DNA of 64,000 nt from Spirochaetota bacterium (GTDB lineage Bacteria; Spirochaetota; UBA6919; CBDBPB01): assembly GCA_965208615.1 (NCBI GenBank), contig CBDBPB010000009.1:1-64000 (forward strand), written 5' to 3'. Made by a program: the position numbers and the translations under genes. Under the pieces are notes generated by a model. That model saw only the letters and a list, made by a program, of their open reading frames with translations, was not told the origin of the DNA and did no database searches. Below are positions 9,300 to 20,087 of this stretch, one piece after another. Numbering within the stretch: position 1 is the first letter of the stretch; each line of letters opens with the position of its first letter.

Positions 9300-12200
9300 C
9301 TAATTATTAGGATACTCGTAAAGCTCTTGTAGCGAATAGACCCCTAAATCACCTTTTACAAGACTTATAATGCCATTTACCGCTGCATTTAAACCCTGCA
9401 CAGTAGTAATAAGAGGTACGTTATGCCTAATAGCCGCCTGACGTATATATTTACCATCACTTACAGACTTATCCGTATTAGGATTGTTTATGATTAAAGA
9501 TACAGTTTTGTTAATAAGATGATCCACAAGATTAGGTCTTCCTTCATTAAGCTTATAAACAAGTTCAGCATTAATCCCGTGAGATAATAAATTATCCCTT
9601 GTACCCTTTGTAGCCAATATCTTAAACCCTAAAGCGGCTAAGGCCTTCATTGGCTCAATAATCCTATCCTTACTACTCCTGTTAACACTAATAAATACAG
9701 TACCCTTAGTGGGTAAAGAAGAACTAGAACTCATCTGAGATTTAGCAAATGCTTTTCCAAAGTCTTTATCCACACCCATAACCTCACCAGTAGACTTCAT
9801 TTCTGGTCCTAAAATAGCATCTTCTTTAGGGAACTTGCCAAAAGGTAAAATAGCCTCCTTAACAGATACATGGCCTAAACTATGAGTATTAATGTTTATA
9901 TCCTTTAACATGGTACCCAACATAACAACACTGGCAATCTTTGCCCACTCAACACCACTAGCCTTACTAACAAATGGAATAGTCCTAGAACCCCTTGGAT
10001 TAGCCTCAATAAAATATACCCTTTTATCCTTAACCGCAAATTGTATGTTAATTAATCCCTTAACTCCTAAAGCTTTAGCCATAAGAATAGTCTGTCTCTC
10101 TAACTCCTTAATAATATCATTATCAAGAGTGATAGGTGGTAAAACACATGCACTATCTCCTGAGTGTATTCCAGCCTCTTCAATATGCTCCATAATACCG
10201 CAAATAACAGCCTCAGAACCATCAGAAATGGCATCTACATCAATCTCAATAGCATCCCTTAGGAATTTATCAATCAAAATAGGAAAAGCAATGCCAAAAC
10301 TATTAATATTATCCAAATACTTATTTAAACTTTCTTCATTATAAACAATCTCCATAGCCCTCCCTCCTAACACATAAGAGGGTCTAACAACCACAGGAAA
10401 ACCTATACGCCTTGCACATAATAAAACCTCATCCATATTATAGGCAATATCATTCTCAGGCTGTAAAAAGCTAAGCCTAGCCAAAAGCTCTTTAAAGTTA
10501 TTCCTATCTTCGGCTAAGTCAATAGATTTGGTAGATGTCCCCAAAATATTAAGCCCTAAAACCTCTAAACTCTTTGCCAAGTTTAATGAAGTCTGCCCGC
10601 CAAGCTGAACAATAACTCCTATAGGCTGTTCTCTCTCATAAATATTAAAAACATCCTCTGTAGTAAGAGGCTCAAAATAAAGGCGATCTGATGTATCATA
10701 ATCAGTAGATACAGTCTCGGGATTAGAGTTAACCATTATAGTCTCATAACTATTTTCTATTAATGCAAAACTTGCCTGACAACACATATAATCAAACTCT
10801 ACACCCTGTCCTATACGATTAGGCCCACTACCTATAATCATAACCTTCTTTTTGTTGGATATAAAACCCTCGTCCTCTTCTTCGTAAGTTGAATAGTAAT
10901 AAGGAGTGTAGGACTTAAACTCCCCAGCACAAGTATCTACTAACTTATATGTAGGTAAAATATCAAAAGACTTACGAAGTTCTCTAACAGCATTATCACT
11001 ATTATTAGATAAAATGGCTATTTGCCTATCACTAAAACCAAACTGCTTTGCCTTATGCAAAAGTTCTTTATCATAGTCCGAAAGAGCTATTCTTAATTTT
11101 TTTTCAAAATCATTAATCTCTTTTAACTGATTCAAAAACCATAAATCAATATTTGTTAAATTGTTAAGCTCATCTATGTCAACCCCTAAATCAAGTGCAT
11201 CCTTTAAATAAAATATTCTTTTAGGATCAGGAAGTCTTAACTTAGATATTAAGCCCTCTATAAGCTCTTCTACCCTTGAGTCGTGTATTTTATTAAAGCT
11301 ATCAAAAAGTTCATTTTCAAAACCATCTTTACCAATCTCTAACGACCTAATAGCCTTTTGGAAAGCCTCTTTAAAAGTCCGACCAATAGCCATAACCTCT
11401 CCCACAGACTTCATCTGAACAGAAAGTGTAGTACTCGCCTTTGGAAACTTCTCAAATGCCCATCTGGGTATCTTAACTACACAATAATCAAGACTAGGCT
11501 CAAATGATGCCTTTGTCTTTTTGGTTATGTCATTAGTAAGCTCATCCAAAGTATAACCAACAGCTAATTTAGCCGCTATCTTTGCAATAGGAAAGCCAGT
11601 AGCCTTAGACGCTAATGCACTAGACCTAGATACTCTTGGGTTCATCTCAATTATAATAACTCGCCCATCAACAGGGTTAACAGCAAATTGTATGTTAGAC
11701 CCTCCAGTATCAACACCAATCTCCCTTATAACCCTAATACTATAATCCCTAAGACGCTGATACTCCTTATCAGAAAGAGTCTGTTGTGGTGCAACTGTAA
11801 TACTATCACCAGTATGAATGCCCATAGGATCAAAGTTCTCTATGGAACATATAATTACAACATTATCCTTGCAATCCCTCATAACCTCCAACTCAAACTC
11901 CTTCCACCCTAAAACAGACTCCTCAATAAGAATCTCATTAATAGGACTAAGGTCTAAACCATTTTTAGCCAACCTCTCAAACTCATCACGATTATAGGCA
12001 ATACTACCACCACTCCCACCTAACGTAAATGACGGACGTATAACCAAAGGATAATGAATATCCTCAGCTACCAATAATGCACTCTGTAAATCATTTGCCC
12101 CCTCACTACGGGGCATATCAAGACCAATCTTAGTCATAGCCTCTTTAAATAAATCACGGTTTTCGGCCTTTTCGATAGATAATAAATTAACCCCTATCAT

Positions 12201-12542
12201 CTCAACACCGTATTTATCAAGAATACCACTCTTGGAAAGGTTAACCACATTATTAAGAGCAGTCTGACCACCCATAGTAGGTAAAATAGCATCAGGACGC
12301 TCTTTTATAATTATCTTTTCTATAATATCAGGAGTTATAGGCTCAATATATGTTGCATCAGCCATACTCGGATCAGTCATTATGGTTGCAGGGTTAGAGT
12401 TAATAAGTATAACCCTATAACCCTCTTCCCTTAACGCCTTGCACGCCTGAGAACCAGAATAATCAAACTCACACGCCTGACCAATAACTATTGGACCAGC
12501 TCCAATCAATAATATGGATTTTATGTCTTTACGCTTTGGCAT
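9300..12542 (-). CDS. carB: Carbamoyl-phosphate synthase large subunit
   Basis: [30 protein letters not shown] start, duplicated ATP-grasp domains, C-terminal MGS domain. Confidence 0.98.
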
Positions 12543-12633
12543 AATAAATAATCCCAATAAGAAATGTATATGAAAATATATCCCCTTAAACTAAATACCA
12601 CAAAAACTAAATAACAATATAATAACTAAAAAG

Positions 12634-13889
12634 CTAACTAATCTGAGTAGCTAAAGCTAATTTACCCTCTAATGCCAAGCGAATTAAGTTTAGCCCATAA
12701 AATACAGACTTATGCCGTATATCATCCCTATTACCACCAAATATACGCCTTTTAGTAATAATAACATCATCATGATCAATAATAGCAAACCAAACAGTCC
12801 CAACAGGCTTATCACTAGTACCACCACTAGGCCCAGCTATACCAGTAATAGCTAAACATATATCAGAACCCATAATAGACTTTCCACCCTTAACCATAGC
12901 CCTAACCACCTCATCACTAACCGCACCATAACTCTCAATAAGCTTAGAATCCACCCCCACTAATTTAGCCTTAAGTTCATTAGAGTAACTAACAATAGCA
13001 CCTAAAAAATACTCTCAGAACTACCAGGCCTATCAGTTAAATACTTGGATAAATATCCCCCAGTGCACGACTCAACAGTGGATAATGTCATAGACCTTTT
13101 AATAAGTAAATTGCTTACTGTATTTAACATGCTATCATCGTCATAAGCATAAATATAACTATCCAAATGCTCATTCAGGCTAACAATTAGATTATCCCTC
13201 CAGTTTGGGTCTTTGTTAAGTGGATAAAACTTTAAAAATACTCCCTCCGGCTTTGTTATAATCTCCCACCTAATAGGGTTAATGAGAGCAACCTTATCAC
13301 GAATGATTTTATCAACAGCATACTCACCCTTGCCAATAAGCTTAACTACAAGTTTATCAGGCTTAACTAACTTAAGATGCTTATTCAGAATAGGCATAAC
13401 CCCATCACAAACCATAGCCCTCATCTCAGAGGGAACACCAGGTAATACAAATATATGACAATCACTATAACTCAAATAAAACCCAGATACTATACCCACA
13501 GCATTAGGTAATAACTTTGCCCCCTTAGGGAATAATGACTGCTTATCATCCTCAGAATATAGATTAGCACCATGATGTAAATACTTCTGCCTTATAATAG
13601 ATAGCTCATGCAAATCTTGTATAAGCTCTAAACCCAATCCCTCTGATATACCATATTTAGTAACGTCATCCTCGGTAGGACCTAAACCACCAGTAATAAA
13701 TAAATAATTACTATAATTAATAGCCCTTATAACCTCATCCCTAATGTAAATAACGTCATCAGGAATTAGCGAAACCCGCATAACCCTTAATCCAAATAAA
13801 CTTAGCTTATCCTCCAAAAAAGGGGAATTACTATCAACTACCTCACCGTTTATAAGCTCATTACCAATAGCAATAATAGAACAACTCAT
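12634..13889 (-). CDS. cinA: CinA (MoCF-like domain plus PncC NMN deamidase), split by a 2-nt insertion near 13013
   Basis: IGNELING, TGGLGPTEDD, LPGVPSEM, ESCTGG, YGAVS and ITGIAGP motifs. Removing an extra AG restores SSEYFLGAIVSYSN. Confidence 0.92.
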
Positions 13890-14371
13890 AAACCACCCAT
13901 ATATCTAAGATGCCAGGGCTCCCAAATATAGCCTTTTAGCTTATAGTTATCCTCTGTGTAGGATATATAAAACCCATATATATTAGCCTTTTTAACTATC
14001 CATTTATAGGCCTTAGTTTCTGAAAAAGACTGAACTAAATCATAATCCACCTCATCGCAGGATAGATCAACAGCAGTACCAAGATGATGCTCAGAATATC
14101 CGGGCTTAGCAGTATCAGCCTGTTCAACTCCACATTCTAAAGTAGCCCTTTTATACAGCTTCTCTTGATAAGATATGCTCCTATAGGCAGATACACACCT
14201 AATAATAATATTATCATAATAAGCAAAATTAAGCATTTTAACAAAAGCACTGAGTGCCTCCCTTCTAAGACGCATATCCCTATTTTCATAACCCTTAACC
14301 CTATACTCAATAGGGAGATCCTCTAAGTCATTAGGCTCATAATTAAATGGAATACTATGCCACTTATCCAC
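13886..14371 (-). CDS. M15B D-alanyl-D-alanine carboxypeptidase (VanY-like)
   Basis: SAYRS..YQ, PGYSEHHLGTAVD and WEPWHLRY motifs. Confidence 0.9.
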   Translation of the reverse strand: MDKWHSIPFNYEPNDLEDLPIEYRVKGYENRDMRLRREALSAFVKMLNFAYYDNIIIRCVSAYRSISYQEKLYKRATLECGVEQADTAKPGYSEHHLGTAVDLSCDEVDYDLVQSFSETKAYKWIVKKANIYGFYISYTEDNYKLKGYIWEPWHLRYMGGL

Positions 14372-14436
14372 TCCCTCTAAGCCAATAATTAGATTTCCAG
14401 TACTATCTAACTTATTAATATCTTTGCTTTTATGCT

Positions 14437-15759
14437 CTAAGATATAAGTTCCCCCAAAAAAGTATTGCCCTTAATAGACCTTAATAAAACCTTTTTATAC
14501 TGCCCAATATGCTTACTAGCCAAAGGAACAACAACAGGCTTATTACCATTAGTTTTCCCAATAAGCTCAGCACTATTATTCTTACTAATGCCCTCAAAAA
14601 GAACCTCTTCAACAGTGTTAAGTTGGTTATGGTTAATCTCTTTTGAAATAGCATGTTGACAGTCAATAATTATTGATAAACGACGCCTTTTCTCATCCTC
14701 ACCAACTATATCAGAATAATTAGCAGACTCAGTACCGGTTCTAACAGAATACTTAAACATAAATGCCTGATCATACCTAATATCCTTAATAGCCCTTAGA
14801 GTCATCTCAAAATCACCATCCGCCTCATAAGGAAAACCAACTAAAATATCAGTTGATATAACTATATTAGCTATCCTCTTACGCAATGCAGAAATAATAC
14901 CTAAATAATGCTCATAAGTATAATCCCTTTTCATCCACCTTAAAACGTAGTCTGATGCACTCTGTAAAGGCAAATGTACATAATTACAAACCTTATTACT
15001 CTTAGCTATAACATCAACTAAGTCTAATGTAAAATCCTTAGGATGAGACGTTAAAAAACGAATACGCCTTAATCCATTAATTTCATTTAAGTTAGCGAGT
15101 AACTCAGCAAAAGTAATATCTAAGTTATCCTGTCCGTAAGAATTGACATTCTGACCCAATAAAAGTATCTCTGTTACACCACTATCAACTAAACTCTTAA
15201 CGTTTTGCATAATATCAGAACTACTACGACTAACCTCACTACCCCTTGTATAGGGTACAATACAATATGTACAAAACTTATTACATCCATGAATAATAGT
15301 AATATCAGCCTTAAAATAATACTTTGTAGAAGGCACAGCCTGACTAAAACTATAACCATCAAAACTACTATAAACTCCATTAGCTCTAGAGGCAGAATGA
15401 CCCTTTAATATACTGGTTAGCCTATGCTTTTGGTGAGTACCAATAACTAAATCAACATAAGGTGCTTTTTTAAATATATTTTCTTTCTCCTTTTGAGCAA
15501 CACAACCCATAAGTACAAGAGTAAAATCTTTCTTAGCCTTCAACATACTATAATGCCTTAACCTGCCCAAAATACGCTCTTCTGCACTAACCCTAACCGC
15601 ACAGCTGTTTAGTATAACTACATCAGCTAAGCCATATTCAGCCTGAACATAACCCTCTAATAATAAACTATTCTCTATTTCAGCTGTATCAGCAACGTTC
15701 ATTTGACAACCAAAATTCTCTATTCTAAAACTCTCACTCTCCTTAGCTAAACTGAGCAT
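14437..15759 (-). CDS. miaB: tRNA i6A37 methylthiotransferase
   Basis: GCQMN, NSCAVR, radical-SAM CNKFCTYC, LLGQNVNSYG and C-terminal TRAM domain. Confidence 0.95.
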   Translation of the reverse strand: MLSLAKESESFRIENFGCQMNVADTAEIENSLLLEGYVQAEYGLADVVILNSCAVRVSAEERILGRLRHYSMLKAKKDFTLVLMGCVAQKEKENIFKKAPYVDLVIGTHQKHRLTSILKGHSASRANGVYSSFDGYSFSQAVPSTKYYFKADITIIHGCNKFCTYCIVPYTRGSEVSRSSSDIMQNVKSLVDSGVTEILLLGQNVNSYGQDNLDITFAELLANLNEINGLRRIRFLTSHPKDFTLDLVDVIAKSNKVCNYVHLPLQSASDYVLRWMKRDYTYEHYLGIISALRKRIANIVISTDILVGFPYEADGDFEMTLRAIKDIRYDQAFMFKYSVRTGTESANYSDIVGEDEKRRRLSIIIDCQHAISKEINHNQLNTVEEVLFEGISKNNSAELIGKTNGNKPVVVPLASKHIGQYKKVLLRSIKGNTFLGELIS

Positions 15760-15768
15760 ATAATATTC

Positions 15769-15990
15769 CTAGTCGTCATCAAAATCGTCATCATCGTCAA
15801 AATCGTCATCATCGTCAAAATCGTCATCATCATCAAAATCGTCATCATCATCAAAATCGTCATCATCATCAAAATCGTCATCATCATCAAAATCGTCATC
15901 ACCATAAAAACTAGCGTTATAGCCATTGTAATAAAAATCAGTTATACCGCCACCTATTACAACATTCTCATCTAAATAAAGTTTATCCAT
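15769..15990 (-). CDS. 73-aa acidic peptide with (DDDDDF)n tail
   Basis: AGGAG RBS 7 nt before the ATG; fills the queA-miaB gap; its stop codon overlaps the putative miaB RBS. Confidence 0.75.
   Translation of the reverse strand: MDKLYLDENVVIGGGITDFYYNGYNASFYGDDDFDDDDDFDDDDDFDDDDDFDDDDDFDDDDDFDDDDDFDDD
15772..15900 (-). repeat. 18-bp tandem repeat, about 7 copies (GAY GAT GAT GAC GAT TTT)
   Basis: Read directly; units differ only at a synonymous GAT/GAC position. Confidence 0.95.
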
Positions 15991-16011
15991 AATAAACTCC
16001 TATAATTTAAT

Positions 16012-17041
16012 CTATATAATTAACATGGAATCCCCATAACTGAAAAACCTAAACTCCCTTTTAATTGCATAATCATAGGCCTTATTAATAAGTGCCTTGC
16101 CAGCAAAAGCCGAAATTAATAACAAAGGCGTTGACTTAGGTATATGTAAATTGCTTATAATAGCATTTACCACTCTAAAGTTATACCCCGGATAAATATA
16201 TAAATTAGTTTTACCCTCGCCAGCAATAACTTTACCATCCTTAAATGAGTGCTCTATTGTTCTGGTAACAGTAGTACCAACTGCTATTACCCTATTCCCG
16301 CTCTCTATCGCCCTGTTTATCTTATTTGCCTCACTCTCTTTAATAATATATCTCTCTTCGTCAAGGGAATGACTCTCTACCTTATCAGTATTTATTGGCC
16401 TAAAAGTACCTAGAGATACGTGTAAAGTAATATTTGCTATTATAAGACCTTTTTTTTTTATATCCCCCAACAATGACGGCGTAAAATGTAAACCAGCAGT
16501 AGGCGATGCTACCGACCCACTAACTTTAGCATAAACGGTTTGATAAGTTTCTCTATCCTTGTCAACAAATCCCCTTAACTTCATAATATAAGGGGGTAAT
16601 GGCACCTCTCCAATACTATCCAATAGCTCATATGTTATTTTTCTATTAAAACACACATAAACAATACCATTACTAGATTTTTTAATAATCTTACCTTCTA
16701 TACCCAAACTAAAAGAAAATAAATCATTCTCCTTACAATATTTATATTTGTTAATAAGAGCCTTCCAACCACTATTAGCAAAATCTTCCAAAAGTAAAAA
16801 CTCATGCTTTTTTTTAGTTCTATTAGAAATACCGTATAACCTAGCAGAATATACCCTAGTATCATTTAATACCAAACAATCCCCAGGATTTAAATAATCA
16901 AGCAGATTATGAAATATACTCTCTTTATAACTATTATCAGCCCTATCAACAAGCAAAAGCCTCGATTTATCACGGGTCTCTTTTGGGAACCTTGCAAATA
17001 AGACTATTCGGAAGATAAAAATCGTAATCACTAACCTTCAT
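16012..17041 (-). CDS. queA: S-adenosylmethionine:tRNA ribosyltransferase-isomerase (1-nt insertion near the 5' end)
   Basis: True start MKVSDYDFYLP at 17041; PLPPYI, YQTVYA, PTAGLHF and FRFFSYGD motifs. Confidence 0.95.
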
Positions 17042-17141
17042 AGAATCCGTATATTTAAAACAATTATTAATAAGTCTAAACCCTTTTATAAGCAATTGTT
17101 AAAATATTATGCCTAATAAGTATTAGACCCTAAAAAATCAA

Positions 17142-17221
17142 AACAAAAAGTCCCCATCTTTGCTAAGACCAAAATAATTATAACAAAAAGTCCCCGTCTT
17201 TGCTAAGACCAAAATAATTAT
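17142..17221. repeat. 40-bp tandem duplication of the ruvB 3' end (1 mismatch)
   Basis: aacaaaaagtcccc[a/g]tctttgctaagaccaaaataattat present twice. Confidence 0.9.
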
Positions 17222-18191
17222 AACAAAGTGGAGTAGTAATACGTCCTCTTGGAGTTCTGGCAATAAAACCCTTTTGTATTAAAAAAGGCTCATAAACATC
17301 CTCAATTGTATCAGCGGTCTCACCAAGAGATACAGCTAAAGTATCAAGTCCAACAGGTCCACCACTATAATTCTCCATAATAGTCATAAGTAGCCTTCTA
17401 TCCATAGTATCTAAACCATTATCATCAATATCCAGCTTAGAAAGAGCATCTTTGGCTATATATAACGTAATTTTCCCATTACCTTCCACCTGAGCAAAAT
17501 CTCTTATACGCCTCATAATTCTGTTTAAAACCCTCGGAGTTCCTCTAGAACGCCTTGCAATCTCTTTAACACTATCATCATCAATATCAATATTCATCAT
17601 AGATGCTGTTCTATATGCAATATCCCTTAAAAGAGTCTCATCATACAAATCAAGACGATTAACTATACCAAACCTAGCATAAAATGGAGGTGTAAGTAAT
17701 CCCGCCTTAGTAGTAGCACCAATCAGCGTAAACCTTGGTAAGTCTATCTTTACAATTTTAGCACCAGCTCCCTGACCAATAACAATATCTATTTTAAAGT
17801 CCTCCATAGCACTATAAAGAATCTCCTCTATAGCACTTTTAACCCTATGAATCTCATCAATAAAAAAAACGTCAAACTCTTTTAAGTTAGTCAAGTGTGC
17901 GGCAATATCCCCAGTTTTCTCCAAAACAGGAGCCTGAACAGCCTTTAAATTCACTCCCATCTCATTTGCAATAATATGTGCCAAAGTAGTTTTACCAAGA
18001 CCTGGAGGCCCATGTAGTAAAATATGATCCAAAGACTCCTTTCTATTTCTGGCCGCCTTAATAAATACCCTAAGATTATCCTTTAACTTTTTCTGACCAA
18101 CAAAATCAGTTAAGTCTTTAGGCCTAAAGGTATAATCAACCTCTTCCACATTTATATTTTCTGTTGAAAGTAATCGTTTTTCCTTAGCCAT
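17178..18191 (-). CDS. ruvB: Holliday junction branch migration helicase RuvB
   Basis: GPPGLGKTTLA, FIDEIHR, RSRGTPR and RTPRGR motifs. Confidence 0.97.
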   Translation of the reverse strand: MAKEKRLLSTENINVEEVDYTFRPKDLTDFVGQKKLKDNLRVFIKAARNRKESLDHILLHGPPGLGKTTLAHIIANEMGVNLKAVQAPVLEKTGDIAAHLTNLKEFDVFFIDEIHRVKSAIEEILYSAMEDFKIDIVIGQGAGAKIVKIDLPRFTLIGATTKAGLLTPPFYARFGIVNRLDLYDETLLRDIAYRTASMMNIDIDDDSVKEIARRSRGTPRVLNRIMRRIRDFAQVEGNGKITLYIAKDALSKLDIDDNGLDTMDRRLLMTIMENYSGGPVGLDTLAVSLGETADTIEDVYEPFLIQKGFIARTPRGRITTPLCYNYFGLSKDGDFLL

Positions 18192-18218
18192 ATAATAACC
18201 AAAACCATGCCTAATAAA

Positions 18219-18813
18219 CTAGGACAATTTAGCTAATAACTTTAATGATTCCTTAATAATATCCTCAGTAGTCCGTCCCTTAGTCTCTTTTAAAGCTAAA
18301 CTAACAGCCTCAATAGACTCCCTCTCACCATATCCCAATGCTATAAGTGCCTCAACAGCAGTTCTGTTTATAGAACTAGCCCCACTACCCTTAGAAATAG
18401 TAAAATGTGAATAGTTCTTCTTAAACTTATTCTCTAACTCTAAAATAAGCTTTTCAGCTCCCTTTTTTCCAAGCCCACTAACCCTGGTAAAAACTAAGAG
18501 AATCCTTATTCAATACAGCATTAATAACCTCTTCACAGGTTAAATCTGATAATATCCTCATGGCAAGCTTTGCACCAATACCAGATACAGTGATTAAATG
18601 TCTAAACACCTCTCTAACCATAGGTGTATAAAAACCATATAACTCTACTAAATCCTCTTTATGGATATAATGAGTATAGAGCTTAACGTACTCTCCAACT
18701 ACTAAAGAACTATCAACAAGCCCTATATTTATTCTGTATCCAATACCAGCAGCCTCAATTACAACATAGCTATCTGCCCTATCCCGTAAAACTCCATATA
18801 CAAAATCAATCAC
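18219..18813 (-). CDS. ruvA: Holliday junction branch migration protein RuvA (frameshift near 18490)
   Basis: VSGIGAKLA; a second frame continues GLGKKGAEKLILEL...AVEALIALGY to TAG at 18219. Confidence 0.92.
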
Positions 18814-18842
18814 ATTATACCCATATTTTAATATATTAATAT

Positions 18843-19342
18843 TTATGTTCGGTGAGTATTATTAGCCCAAGGAGAGTAAGCAAAATTACCATGGCATACT
18901 GCTATAGCAAGGGCATCAGATGCATCATCAGGTTTAGGCTTTTCAGATAATCCAAGAATATAGCAAACTAACCTATTAACCTGATCTTTATTAGCCCTAC
19001 CATAACCAGCAATACCCTGCTTTACCTGAAGAGGTGTATATTCAAATATCTTCTTATCCTATGGTAACAAGCTAATAACAGTCCACCCCTTGCCTGACTA
19101 ACTTTTATTGCTGTTTTTGTGTTCTTAGAAAAAAATAACTCCTCTATAGCTATTTCCTCAGGATTATACTCCTCTATAAGCTTAATAGTCTCTCTGTATA
19201 TTATATCCAAACGCCTAATAAGCGTAATAGTATTAGAAGTCTTAATAACCCCCGTATCCAAAAAGCTATAAGCCTTATCTATAACCTCAATAAACCCATA
19301 ACCAGTAGTCTCTAAGCCAGGGTCAATACCCATAATTACCAT
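18843..19342 (-). CDS. ruvC: Crossover junction endodeoxyribonuclease RuvC (frameshift near 19050)
   Basis: MGIDPG, AIEELFF and QARG motifs; a second frame reads EYTPLQVKQ...[14 protein letters not shown]. Confidence 0.93.
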
Positions 19343-19364
19343 TTATTCTCATCATAAAATAATA

Positions 19365-20087
19365 TTAATCAAAATCAAGATTACTATATAAATCTTGAAC
19401 ATCATCATGATCCTCAAGAATCTCCATAAGGCTTAATACCCTATTAACCTTAGAACTATCAACCTTTACGGTATTCTTTGGTATACGACCAAGCTCAGAA
19501 CTCTTAATATCTATACCCTTGTCAGTAAGGGCAGTCTTTATAAGATCAAAATCATTAACTTTAGTGTAAACTATAATTAAATCATCCTCAATAACAATGT
19601 CTAATGCACCCTCATTCAAAGCTATCTCCATAACTTCATCCTCATTATATTTAGACAACTCTATACTAATAATCCCTCTCTTCTCAAACATCCATGCAAC
19701 ACTACCGCTTTCACTAAGATTACCACCATTTTTAGATAAAAGCTTCCTAATCTCTGCTAAAGTACGATTACTATTATCAGTAAGGACATCCATTATAAAA
19801 GCCACACCCTCTGGACCATAACCCTCATAAACATACTCTTTATAGTCAACGCCTTCGAGTTCACCAGTTCCTTTTTTAATTGCCCTGTCAATGTTATCAG
19901 CAGGCATATTAGCTCCTTTAGCCTTTTGCACCGCCAATCTAAGACGTGGATTAGCATTAATATCACCTCCACCCGACCTTGCAGCAATAGTAATCTCTTT
20001 AATTAGCTTGGTAAATATTTTACCCCGCTTAACATCCGCTGATGCCTTTTTATGCTTTATAGAATGCCACTTTGAATGTCCTGACAT
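19365..20087 (-). CDS. yebC: YebC/PmpR family protein
   Basis: MSGHSKWHSIKHKK, YEGYGP and DDVQ motifs; upstream of ruvC. Confidence 0.96.
   Translation of the reverse strand: MSGHSKWHSIKHKKASADVKRGKIFTKLIKEITIAARSGGGDINANPRLRLAVQKAKGANMPADNIDRAIKKGTGELEGVDYKEYVYEGYGPEGVAFIMDVLTDNSNRTLAEIRKLLSKNGGNLSESGSVAWMFEKRGIISIELSKYNEDEVMEIALNEGALDIVIEDDLIIVYTKVNDFDLIKTALTDKGIDIKSSELGRIPKNTVKVDSSKVNRVLSLMEILEDHDDVQDLYSNLDFD

Follow-up and report, generated by a model that had tools for sequence, protein, structure and literature searches.

What does a reading frame rich in aspartate codons do between two genes for tRNA modification? The question is raised by a stretch of DNA from an uncultured spirochete (Spirochaetota bacterium, assembly GCA_965208615.1, contig CBDBPB010000009.1, positions 1 to 64,000), here called the window, in which a previously unannotated open reading frame (ORF) of 73 codons, designated X, lies between queA and miaB. 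The initial annotation proposed that X senses the tRNA modifications made by the enzymes on either side. We favor instead, with a probability of roughly 0.45, the view that X is a genuine translated, disordered polyanionic mini-protein that acts in trans and is made together with MiaB. X belongs to a lineage-restricted set of acidic/aromatic-repeat ORFs in one Spirochaetota clade, and the function of its product would be exercised in trans. Two things set it apart: its position between two tRNA-modification genes is fixed, and it seems to have taken over from a zinc-ribbon mini-protein. The features of the locus are as follows:

15769..15990, minus strand: ORF X, hyper-acidic mini-protein gene, 73 codons
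15997..16001 (read 16001-15997), minus strand: Shine-Dalgarno (SD) sequence AGGAG of X, 6 nt ahead of the ATG at 15990-15988
15901..15990, minus strand: non-repeat head of X, codons 1-30, Y/N/G-rich
Minus strand, following the head: tail of X, DDDF-(DDDDDF)x6-DDD, then the TAG stop
15776-15910, minus strand: 18-nt tandem repeat, 7.5 copies, 96% matches, unit GAT GAT GAT GAC GAT TTT
15767..15771, minus strand: TAG stop of X (15771-15769) overlapping AGGA (15770-15767), the latter 8 nt before the miaB ATG; a possible coupling site for translation
15747..15926, same minus strand as X: overlapping 59-codon M/T/I/L frame, a by-product of repeat composition and not a gene
14437..15759, minus strand: miaB, tRNA (i6A37-C2) methylthiotransferase, 440 aa, TIGR01574 with UPF0004, Radical_SAM and TRAM domains
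16012..17031, minus strand: queA, 339 aa, its stop 21 nt before the X ATG

The acidic reading frame

The structural description in the initial annotation proved accurate, on the minus strand: the 73-codon ORF has its own AGGAG ribosome-binding site (RBS), 52 of its last 56 codons (residues 18-73) encode D, F, Y or N and the other four G, A, S and G, its stop overlaps an RBS-like element, and the miaB ATG (15759-15757) follows 9 nt after the stop. With 39 Asp among its 73 residues, neither Cys nor Pro, and no Lys or Arg beyond residue 3, X is the most acidic ORF in this 2.46-Mb genome of 31% G+C; its best 20-residue window is 0.85 D+E, compared with at most 0.65 in the six other ORFs of the genome that reach 0.6. 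The sole other ORF of this genome with a poly-Asp run, at C1:143486-143686 on the minus strand, has 66 codons, a hydrophobic head and an HSSD-repeat tail ending in ten Asp. The array within X (period 18) scores 242, the top of the 50 Tandem Repeats Finder rows for the window. Pfam and NCBIfam scans of X gave no family match, and AlphaFold2, supplied with an alignment of 4 rows, predicted no secondary structure (pLDDT 55.8, pTM 0.13). The RNA of the entire ORF folds no better than shuffled sequences (z=-0.11); at 15975-16001 (minus strand) the AGGAG of X is predicted to base-pair with codons 2-5 in an A/U-rich hairpin of 10 bp whose loop contains the AUG.

In what follows, G000 is the genome of the window, relatives are numbered G001 and so on, and families f1 and so on. 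Because repeat units are kin to one another, variable columns rather than pairs were counted. By codon position, these number 0/0/1 among the 6 full units of G000, where the sole variable column is a GAT/GAC third position, and 0/0/4 in the homolog of G017; the pairwise differences between units, 8 in G000 and 157 in G017, all lie at third positions. Variation among units that is limited to third codon positions fits selection on the acidic frame. X is a conserved gene and no accident of the repeat. The overlapping M/T/I/L frame is open in G001, G017 and G031 as well, but its residues diverge there (K/R/S/T). Among the homologs, charge and aromatic composition are kept while residues interchange, the hydrophobic slots being filled by F, Y, W, L or I. 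Judged from these sequences, selection appears to keep charge and a periodic hydrophobic residue, not specific codons.

Acidic-repeat ORFs upstream of miaB in related genomes

All counts refer to a sample of the phylum with one genome per species. HMMER was run with X on 41 and then on 401 Spirochaetota genomes; in the 401, only G017 and G094 fell under E=0.01, and G001, G002 and G031 were missed. The method is insensitive to this composition, and the further homologs were found by reading miaB neighborhoods directly. In all five genomes (G000, G001, G002, G017, G031) the ORF immediately preceding miaB is an acidic/aromatic repeat ORF, and in four of the five it immediately follows queA, so the synteny that the initial annotation had proposed to look for exists. 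The counterparts of X are:

G001: same order as G000, ruvB-queA-X-miaB; 68-codon acidic/aromatic ORF; gap to miaB 24 nt
G002: same order as G000; miaB contig ends inside the acidic ORF (partial); gap to miaB 54 nt
G002, second contig: queA, then a 73-codon acidic ORF, then the contig end
G017: 112 codons, a short head then (DEDFED)n; gap to miaB 8 nt; MiaB 43% identity
G031: only other genome of the class of G017; queA-X-miaB; 151-codon acidic ORF; gap to miaB 90 nt

In G017 the gene upstream of X is not queA but a 247-aa ORF, a candidate proC by eye. The carriers belong to four families (f1, f2, f17, f26) in two classes, with MiaB identities of 41-65%, and they represent two deep lineages, not five independent events. 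The pattern [DE]3[FY][DE]4 is confined to the miaB locus in four of the five genomes (6/6, 6/6, 12/12 and 5/5 matches); in G002 it occurs once at the end of the miaB contig, twice at the start of the queA contig and nowhere else, and the reversed pattern, used as a control, has 0 matches in the five genomes. An AGGAG/GGAGG-type site stands 6-7 nt before the ATG of all four full-length acidic-repeat ORFs, and also before that of the zinc-ribbon counterpart in G013 described below; miaB itself mostly has no SD, or a weak one, in this clade. The acidic run begins at codon 31 in G000 and at codons 23, 18 and 21 in the homologs. X ends in DFDDD and the homologs in EEEEY, DDEAF, DEDDY and YDEY, none with Pro, and G017 and G031 share the non-repeat C-terminal motif EEEYEEYLD. 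Between X and miaB of G031 (L237 1427-1459), a 15-bp hairpin followed by T8 begins 16 nt past the X stop and could be a terminator or an attenuator.

An ORF of ~63-84 codons (depending on the start chosen) in G094 (L319 2350-2604) has acidic runs broken by Trp (DDDW) and lies away from miaB; its neighbors, by eye, are a polyprenyl-synthase-like gene and a HIT-like gene.

A zinc-ribbon mini-protein in the same position

Thirty miaB loci were read, drawn from a 41-genome sample of relatives that includes G000. Four carry an acidic-repeat ORF (plus G002, where it is cut off), five a zinc-ribbon protein and 17 other genes, and three are too short upstream. The zinc-ribbon proteins just upstream of miaB (G013, G027, G010, G037, G024) are acidic, have four Cys and measure 76-87 residues. 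In G013 and G027 the order is queA-ZnX-miaB, the ZnX stop overlapping the miaB start in the former and lying 8 nt before miaB in the latter; elsewhere the gap between the zinc-ribbon gene and miaB is 113-246 nt. Alignment of these proteins with three metagenomic relatives (alignment A1) reveals invariant CEDC, W, D..DY, CPMCGS and Y elements in a family of 64-120 aa with a pI of about 4.1 and a disordered D/E-rich region dotted with F/Y. No curated family matches the A1 proteins above threshold, and their database records read "hypothetical protein", apart from one member labeled "rubrerythrin". A Foldseek search of the zinc-ribbon model against the PDB gave 0 matches at E<=0.001, the top ones being generic HypA/MCM zinc ribbons.

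The A1 profile matches 243 of the 401 phylum genomes. It finds nothing in the acidic-repeat families f1, f2, f17 and f26 (0 matches in G000, G001, G002, G017 and G031), nor in some other families such as f18 (0/51). At the best 22 A1 loci (f13, f10, f23, f40) miaB is adjacent in 20, at the next 8 (f46, f32, f49) in none; at the two of these 8 that were read (f32, f46; L315 1477-1758, L312 1489-1761) the A1 gene overlaps the start of uvrA, and in six further families its neighbors vary. Among twenty further loci, from 13 families, only two had a zinc-ribbon gene upstream of miaB, both of them in f10.

A maximum-likelihood tree of MiaB was built with 22 rows, 8 of the 30 loci (L246, L249, L254, L260, L262, L263, L265, L266) being left out as second family members or because of a truncated gene. 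The five acidic-repeat lineages and G013/G027 form one clade in this tree (support 97/96), with an unresolved trichotomy inside. Given this clade and the common slot, the queA-X-miaB order is most simply ancestral to the clade. The slot is filled by a zinc ribbon in one branch and by an acidic repeat in the remaining ones; the host lineages are sisters, and the distributions are complementary. X is a positional counterpart of the zinc-ribbon gene, and the odds that it also descends from that gene, as opposed to having replaced it, are about even. A likeness of motifs noticed by eye (DFYYNG in X and DYYNG in the ribbon; FEEEY heads) receives no support from hhalign.

Another small protein occurs in the vicinity of these genes. 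In G021, G034 and G006 (L248, L255, L257), miaB is directly preceded by the gene of a basic protein of 128-263 aa (pI about 10) that contains a CPxC...HF[DE]C motif and matches no Pfam family. In G030 (L003 722-1719) this basic protein is found directly downstream of a 140-residue D/F/Y-repeat protein, to which a protein in G092 (L022) is near-identical; the G000 homolog of the basic protein (C7:85421-85807) is far from X. These cases are hints of a link among the acidic protein, the basic protein and miaB.

A model for the synthesis and function of X

We propose a model whereby X is synthesized from its own strong RBS and ribosomes ending 9 nt before the miaB start probably lead to co-production of X and MiaB, often by translational coupling. 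Part of what the initial annotation suggested is retained here: coupling of miaB translation to X is plausible, with the stop 8-9 nt from miaB in G000 and G017, although the proposed dependence on tRNA modification is not. The finished X would be a trans-acting polyanion that serves either as a decoy resembling nucleic acid or as an electrostatic chaperone of basic surfaces that bind RNA or DNA, and MiaB, translated from the same message, would be the obvious candidate target. The polyanionic nucleic-acid mimic listed as an alternative by the initial annotation falls within this model.

The 30-residue head and the periodic Phe may let the ribosome pass ~40 acidic codons. According to the available text of a study in E. 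coli, acidic nascent chains destabilize the ribosome, mostly at N-termini; a preceding chain long enough to span the tunnel opposes this, a 30-residue insert doing so better than a 5-residue one, and so do bulky residues near the peptidyl-transferase center (10.1101/2021.02.02.429294). The head and periodic Phe of X fit the countermeasures described in that part of the study. The low-complexity tail would grow and shrink by slippage in whole codons, the 18-nt array would be young, and such arrays may persist because charge and periodicity alone matter. In its lineage, X is probably the positional descendant or the replacement of the acidic zinc-ribbon mini-protein.

Several observations weigh against this model. 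The link between X and the zinc-ribbon family is positional and phylogenetic only: homology was undetected when alignment A2 was compared with A1 by hhalign (probability 0.3%), and X lacks Cys. In other families the zinc-ribbon gene has uvrA or different genes beside it, which gives no reason to assume a role specific to MiaB. Generic acidic/aromatic proteins occur commonly in every phylum and are unlinked to miaB; a scan of 185,579 species genomes for ([DE]5[FY])x2 found at least 119 loci, and a MiaB-like gene (27% identity) accompanies 1 of the 119 listed. The terminator-like hairpin of G031 separates X from miaB, so that coupling is not universal. Public sequencing runs matching the stretch amount to one DNA-type run and no RNA run. 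Assembly contigs from this sole run are identical to the window at 15300-15808 and 15872-16400, and since none spans the repeat, no contig confirms its copy number, 7.5 being the figure of the assembly. Finally, three frameshifted genes within 7 kb make small sequence errors possible.

Two further results were not used as evidence. Prediction of a MiaB-X complex scored 0.01, which gives no verdict. The net charge of MiaB is positive in 6 of 7 members of the clade and in 6 of 15 others, a comparison confounded by kinship and base composition.

Alternative explanations

The rival that survives best holds that X is a cis-acting gauge of translatability, whose peptide is jobless and whose full translation gates miaB. 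Completion of the ~40 acidic codons would hinge on how stable the ribosome is (Mg2+, bL31, ABCF factors) as well as on decoding. Ribosomes arriving at the stop would alone turn on miaB, by termination-reinitiation across the 0-9 nt gap (G000, G017, G013/G027) or by occluding a terminator hairpin (G031). We consider this rather unlikely, and the same holds for the version in which decoding by tRNAs carrying queuosine at position 34 (Q34) and 2-methylthio-N6-isopentenyladenosine at position 37 (ms2i6A37) is also sensed. The layout of the locus invites such a reading: the SD of X is strong while that of miaB is weak or missing in most members of the clade, the X stop lies 9 nt (G000) or 8 nt (G017, G027) from the miaB ATG or overlaps it (G013), and the 15-bp hairpin and T8 of G031 begin 16 nt after the X stop. 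An effect of the nascent chain would also tolerate free D/E interchange and variable length, and, in the available text of the E. coli study, D/E runs destabilize the ribosome and MgtL uses this effect as a Mg2+ sensor (10.1101/2021.02.02.429294).

The same text, however, places the peak of the effect at N-termini and calls internal runs "cryptic" (10.1101/2021.02.02.429294), and the run in X starts at codon 31, behind a head of the counteracting kind and with bulky Phe recurring throughout. Gaps of 24, 54 and 90 nt (G001, G002, G031), and of 113-246 nt in the zinc-ribbon loci, argue against obligatory reinitiation. The native RNA of the G000 junction, covering the last repeats and the miaB start, is equaled or surpassed in folding by 199 of 200 shuffles (z=+2.15), and because this RNA is less structured than shuffles, no attenuator is evident there. 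The positional counterpart has a conserved folded domain, hence is a protein with a function, and the loop would amount to positive feedback for MiaB, which would be odd for homeostasis. The cis-acting readings taken together, including the tRNA-modification sensor discussed below, are still unlikely.

X might also be a functionless remnant, the decayed acidic N-terminal region of an ancestral zinc-ribbon gene, whose frame stays open since GAY/GAR/TTY repeats contain no stops and slippage remains in frame. X has no detectable family and no Cys; its genome is prone to tandem arrays, as at the end of ruvB (a 40-nt duplication); other frames of the repeat are open too; and a 15-billion-protein collection contains none of the four full-length ORFs as an exact sequence. 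Decay is nonetheless hard to reconcile with a strong SD and ATG kept in four families of two classes, with unit variation only at third positions, with an acidic and aromatic composition kept across 41-65% MiaB identity, or with the EEEYEEYLD motif common to G017 and G031. This explanation is doubtful, to a greater degree than the gauge.

It is very unlikely that X binds cations (Fe, Mg, Ca or Zn) in the cytosol on behalf of the Fe-S enzyme MiaB, for example as a buffer or donor; a cation-binding peptide was among the alternatives of the initial annotation, and this role would be a special case of a trans-acting protein. MiaB consumes its auxiliary cluster and interacts with Fe-S carriers. The 39 Asp in 73 residues, the radical-SAM nature of MiaB and the four-Cys metal site of the positional counterpart, one member of which is labeled "rubrerythrin", are in keeping with such a role. 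X, however, contains no metal-binding motif, the zinc-ribbon family also lies beside uvrA and unrelated genes, and the fold search with the zinc ribbon returned only generic ribbons, with 0 at E<=0.001.

The sensor put forward by the initial annotation, in which the Asp/Asn/Tyr (Q34) and Phe/Tyr (ms2i6A37) codons of X read the products of the flanking enzymes, has become highly improbable. X does lie between queA and miaB in 4 of 5 genomes, tgt and miaA are both encoded in G000, so that both pathways exist, and the four full-length homologs differ little in their share of UNN codons (0.21-0.22). The available text of one report adds that Q34 and i6A/ms2i6A occur together on tRNA-Tyr and that frameshifting results when both are lost (PMC13326639); this finding could, however, explain the adjacency of queA and miaB without involving X. 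The codons of the four full-length ORFs are distributed as follows:

G000: D/E 39/1; TTT/TTC 9/0; GAT/GAC 28/11
G001: D/E 29/11; TTT/TTC 3/4; GAT/GAC 17/12
G017: D/E 45/32; TTT/TTC 8/5; GAT/GAC 28/17
G031: D/E 53/48; TTT/TTC 11/4; GAT/GAC 38/15

D and E interchange freely in the homolog tails, the observation that the initial annotation had itself named as refuting, and Q-tRNAs do not decode Glu. NAY codons, those that Q-tRNAs do read, drop from a share of 0.64 to 0.42 across these four, and the hydrophobic slots also take Ile, which is not a UNN codon, and CTN-Leu. X was correctly described as using mostly GAT and TTT, but this is no special bias, being no greater than the genome's own usage: GAT 28/GAC 11 (72%) compares with 78% genome-wide, and TTT 9/TTC 0 with 87%. 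Nor is the bias conserved, as TTT/TTC and GAT/GAC are mixed among the homologs. G017 has no queA beside X. The aromatic residues are all UNN-coded, so the steady UNN share fits equally well with selection for bulky residues every 4-6 positions.

RimO, a MiaB paralog, methylthiolates an Asp of ribosomal protein S12. That X is a peptide substrate, either an Asp-rich target of a methylthiotransferase of the MiaB/RimO family or a double-glycine-leader precursor as the initial annotation also suggested, is scarcely credible despite its Asp-rich sequence beside a methylthiotransferase-family gene and the GGG in its head, given that the neighbor is a MiaB equivalog (RimO model 253 bits, cut-off 357) orthologous to the MiaB of 393/401 phylum genomes, that GGG is limited to G000 and absent from G001, G017 and G031, and that no peptidase or ABC exporter is found among the ORFs of 9300-20087 (six scanned with Pfam, the rest by eye).

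Flanking genes and local assembly

The flanking genes had been named queA and miaB from the letters of the window, and profile scores uphold both names. MiaB of the window scores 457.7 bits against TIGR01574 (cut-off 355.3), making it a MiaB equivalog, and stays below the cut-offs of the RimO model (253 vs 357) and the MtaB model (290 vs 357). QueA scores 327.9 bits against TIGR00113 (cut-off 267.45) and 369.5 bits against PF02547, covering profile positions 12-322 of 322. A promoter scan found 38 sites where 34 were expected, a terminator scan found none between queA, X and miaB, and Rfam at a permissive threshold over 13000-19000 gave two chance-level snoRNA matches only.

The genes ruvA, ruvC and cinA are each split by a frameshift (18180-19360 and 12900-13060 of the window, minus strand), with halves in different frames; the splits are either assembly indels or real pseudogenes. 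The end of ruvB, last codons and stop included, is tandemly duplicated at 17142-17227 with a 40-nt unit (2.2 copies, 97%). In G001 (L232 2627-3717) and G002 (L329 396-1450), queA is present as two ORFs (~215 aa and 124-145 aa) divided at about the same point; this split, common to two independent f2 assemblies, may be genuine.

Wider searches and significance

Outside the miaB neighborhoods of the phylum, searches for X gave little. With the first 34 residues of X, a short query of low power, phmmer returned 0 matches at E<=0.001 among 1.84 billion representative proteins. A search of 5.8 billion clusters for proteins of near length gave 4 matches, all at E>6, among the 8000 candidates listed. 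In the ESM Atlas the nearest clusters score 0.85 and consist of small Spirochaetota proteins automatically named "DNA primase (family)" or hypothetical, which is a lead only. None of 80 metagenome loci with MiaB at 37-44% identity, where no close relative is present, has an acidic ORF within 3 kb. A long MiaB frame in G319 (681 aa), considered as an X-MiaB fusion, is merely a GC-rich open frame. In literature searches on miaB with an acidic protein and on queuosine or ms2i6A leader peptides, no such ORF appeared in the titles or abstracts of the papers listed.

Gene callers routinely drop small low-complexity ORFs such as X, and the zinc-ribbon family is phylum-wide yet annotated only as "hypothetical". 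Were X a polyanion acting in trans, a radical-SAM tRNA enzyme would have a partner or regulator of a new kind. Were it a gauge acting in cis, sensing by acidic nascent chains would extend beyond Mg2+ transport, and a tRNA-modification operon would read the state of translation through an acidic nascent chain. X is in addition a testable handle on how miaB expression is organized in a poorly studied phylum, and a worked example of separating codon selection from charge selection in a repeat ORF.

Comparison with known systems

Loss of ms2i6A37 alters attenuation at codon-run leaders such as pheL and trpL. Like these leaders, X has repeated Phe codons in an ORF preceding a gene, but as an attenuation leader of this type it fails on length, structure and codon conservation. 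The leaders have about 15-30 codons, and where about 35 or fewer would be expected X has 73 and its homologs 68, 112 and 151 (a range of 73-151 against the leaders when X and the longer homologs are considered); G000 has no terminator/antiterminator pair, and the codons are unconserved.

MgtL-type leaders share with X a D/E-rich ORF directly upstream of a controllable gene and, in the available text, the equivalence of D and E (10.1101/2021.02.02.429294). As described there, MgtL aborts within its first six residues, contains Pro and precedes a Mg2+ transporter gene, whereas X, which precedes the gene for a tRNA enzyme, lacks Pro and combines a 30-residue head with ~40 acidic codons and periodic Phe. 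The criterion of that text is a D/E/P cluster in the first ~10 codons (10.1101/2021.02.02.429294), and X lacks this feature of MgtL-type leaders.

The A1 mini-protein and X are both small and acidic, with disordered D/E-rich sequence containing F/Y, and occupy the slot upstream of miaB. The A1 protein differs in its CEDC...W...CPMCGS ribbon, and its acidic region is N-terminal, that of X C-terminal. Slot and host clade match, but without Cys ligands or profile similarity X is not counted as a member of this family.

The C-terminal tip of single-stranded DNA-binding protein (SSB) is an acidic run ending in ...DDDIPF, in which a free C-terminal Phe is needed. X resembles it in having an acidic run with Phe, and G001, G002, G017 and G031 end with an aromatic residue after an acidic run; X, however, has no Pro and repeats the motif internally, X of the window ends in DFDDD, and no homolog has the hydrophobic-Pro-Phe end, so that mimicry of the SSB tip was rejected.

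DNA mimics of the Ocr/ArdA type have a rigid fold that shows carboxylates in a DNA-like pattern. For X, the prediction from a 4-row alignment shows no secondary structure (pLDDT 55.8, pTM 0.13), and X may yet be a mimic of a disordered kind.

SutA and prothymosin alpha act by binding another macromolecule and not by catalysis. In the available texts, SutA of Pseudomonas aeruginosa (10.1101/423384) and prothymosin alpha (PMC4910978) are, like X, small, acidic and predicted to be disordered; they have no sequence relation to X, which is far more acidic and more repetitive. By analogy, it is these small acidic disordered binders that X would resemble most in its mode of action.

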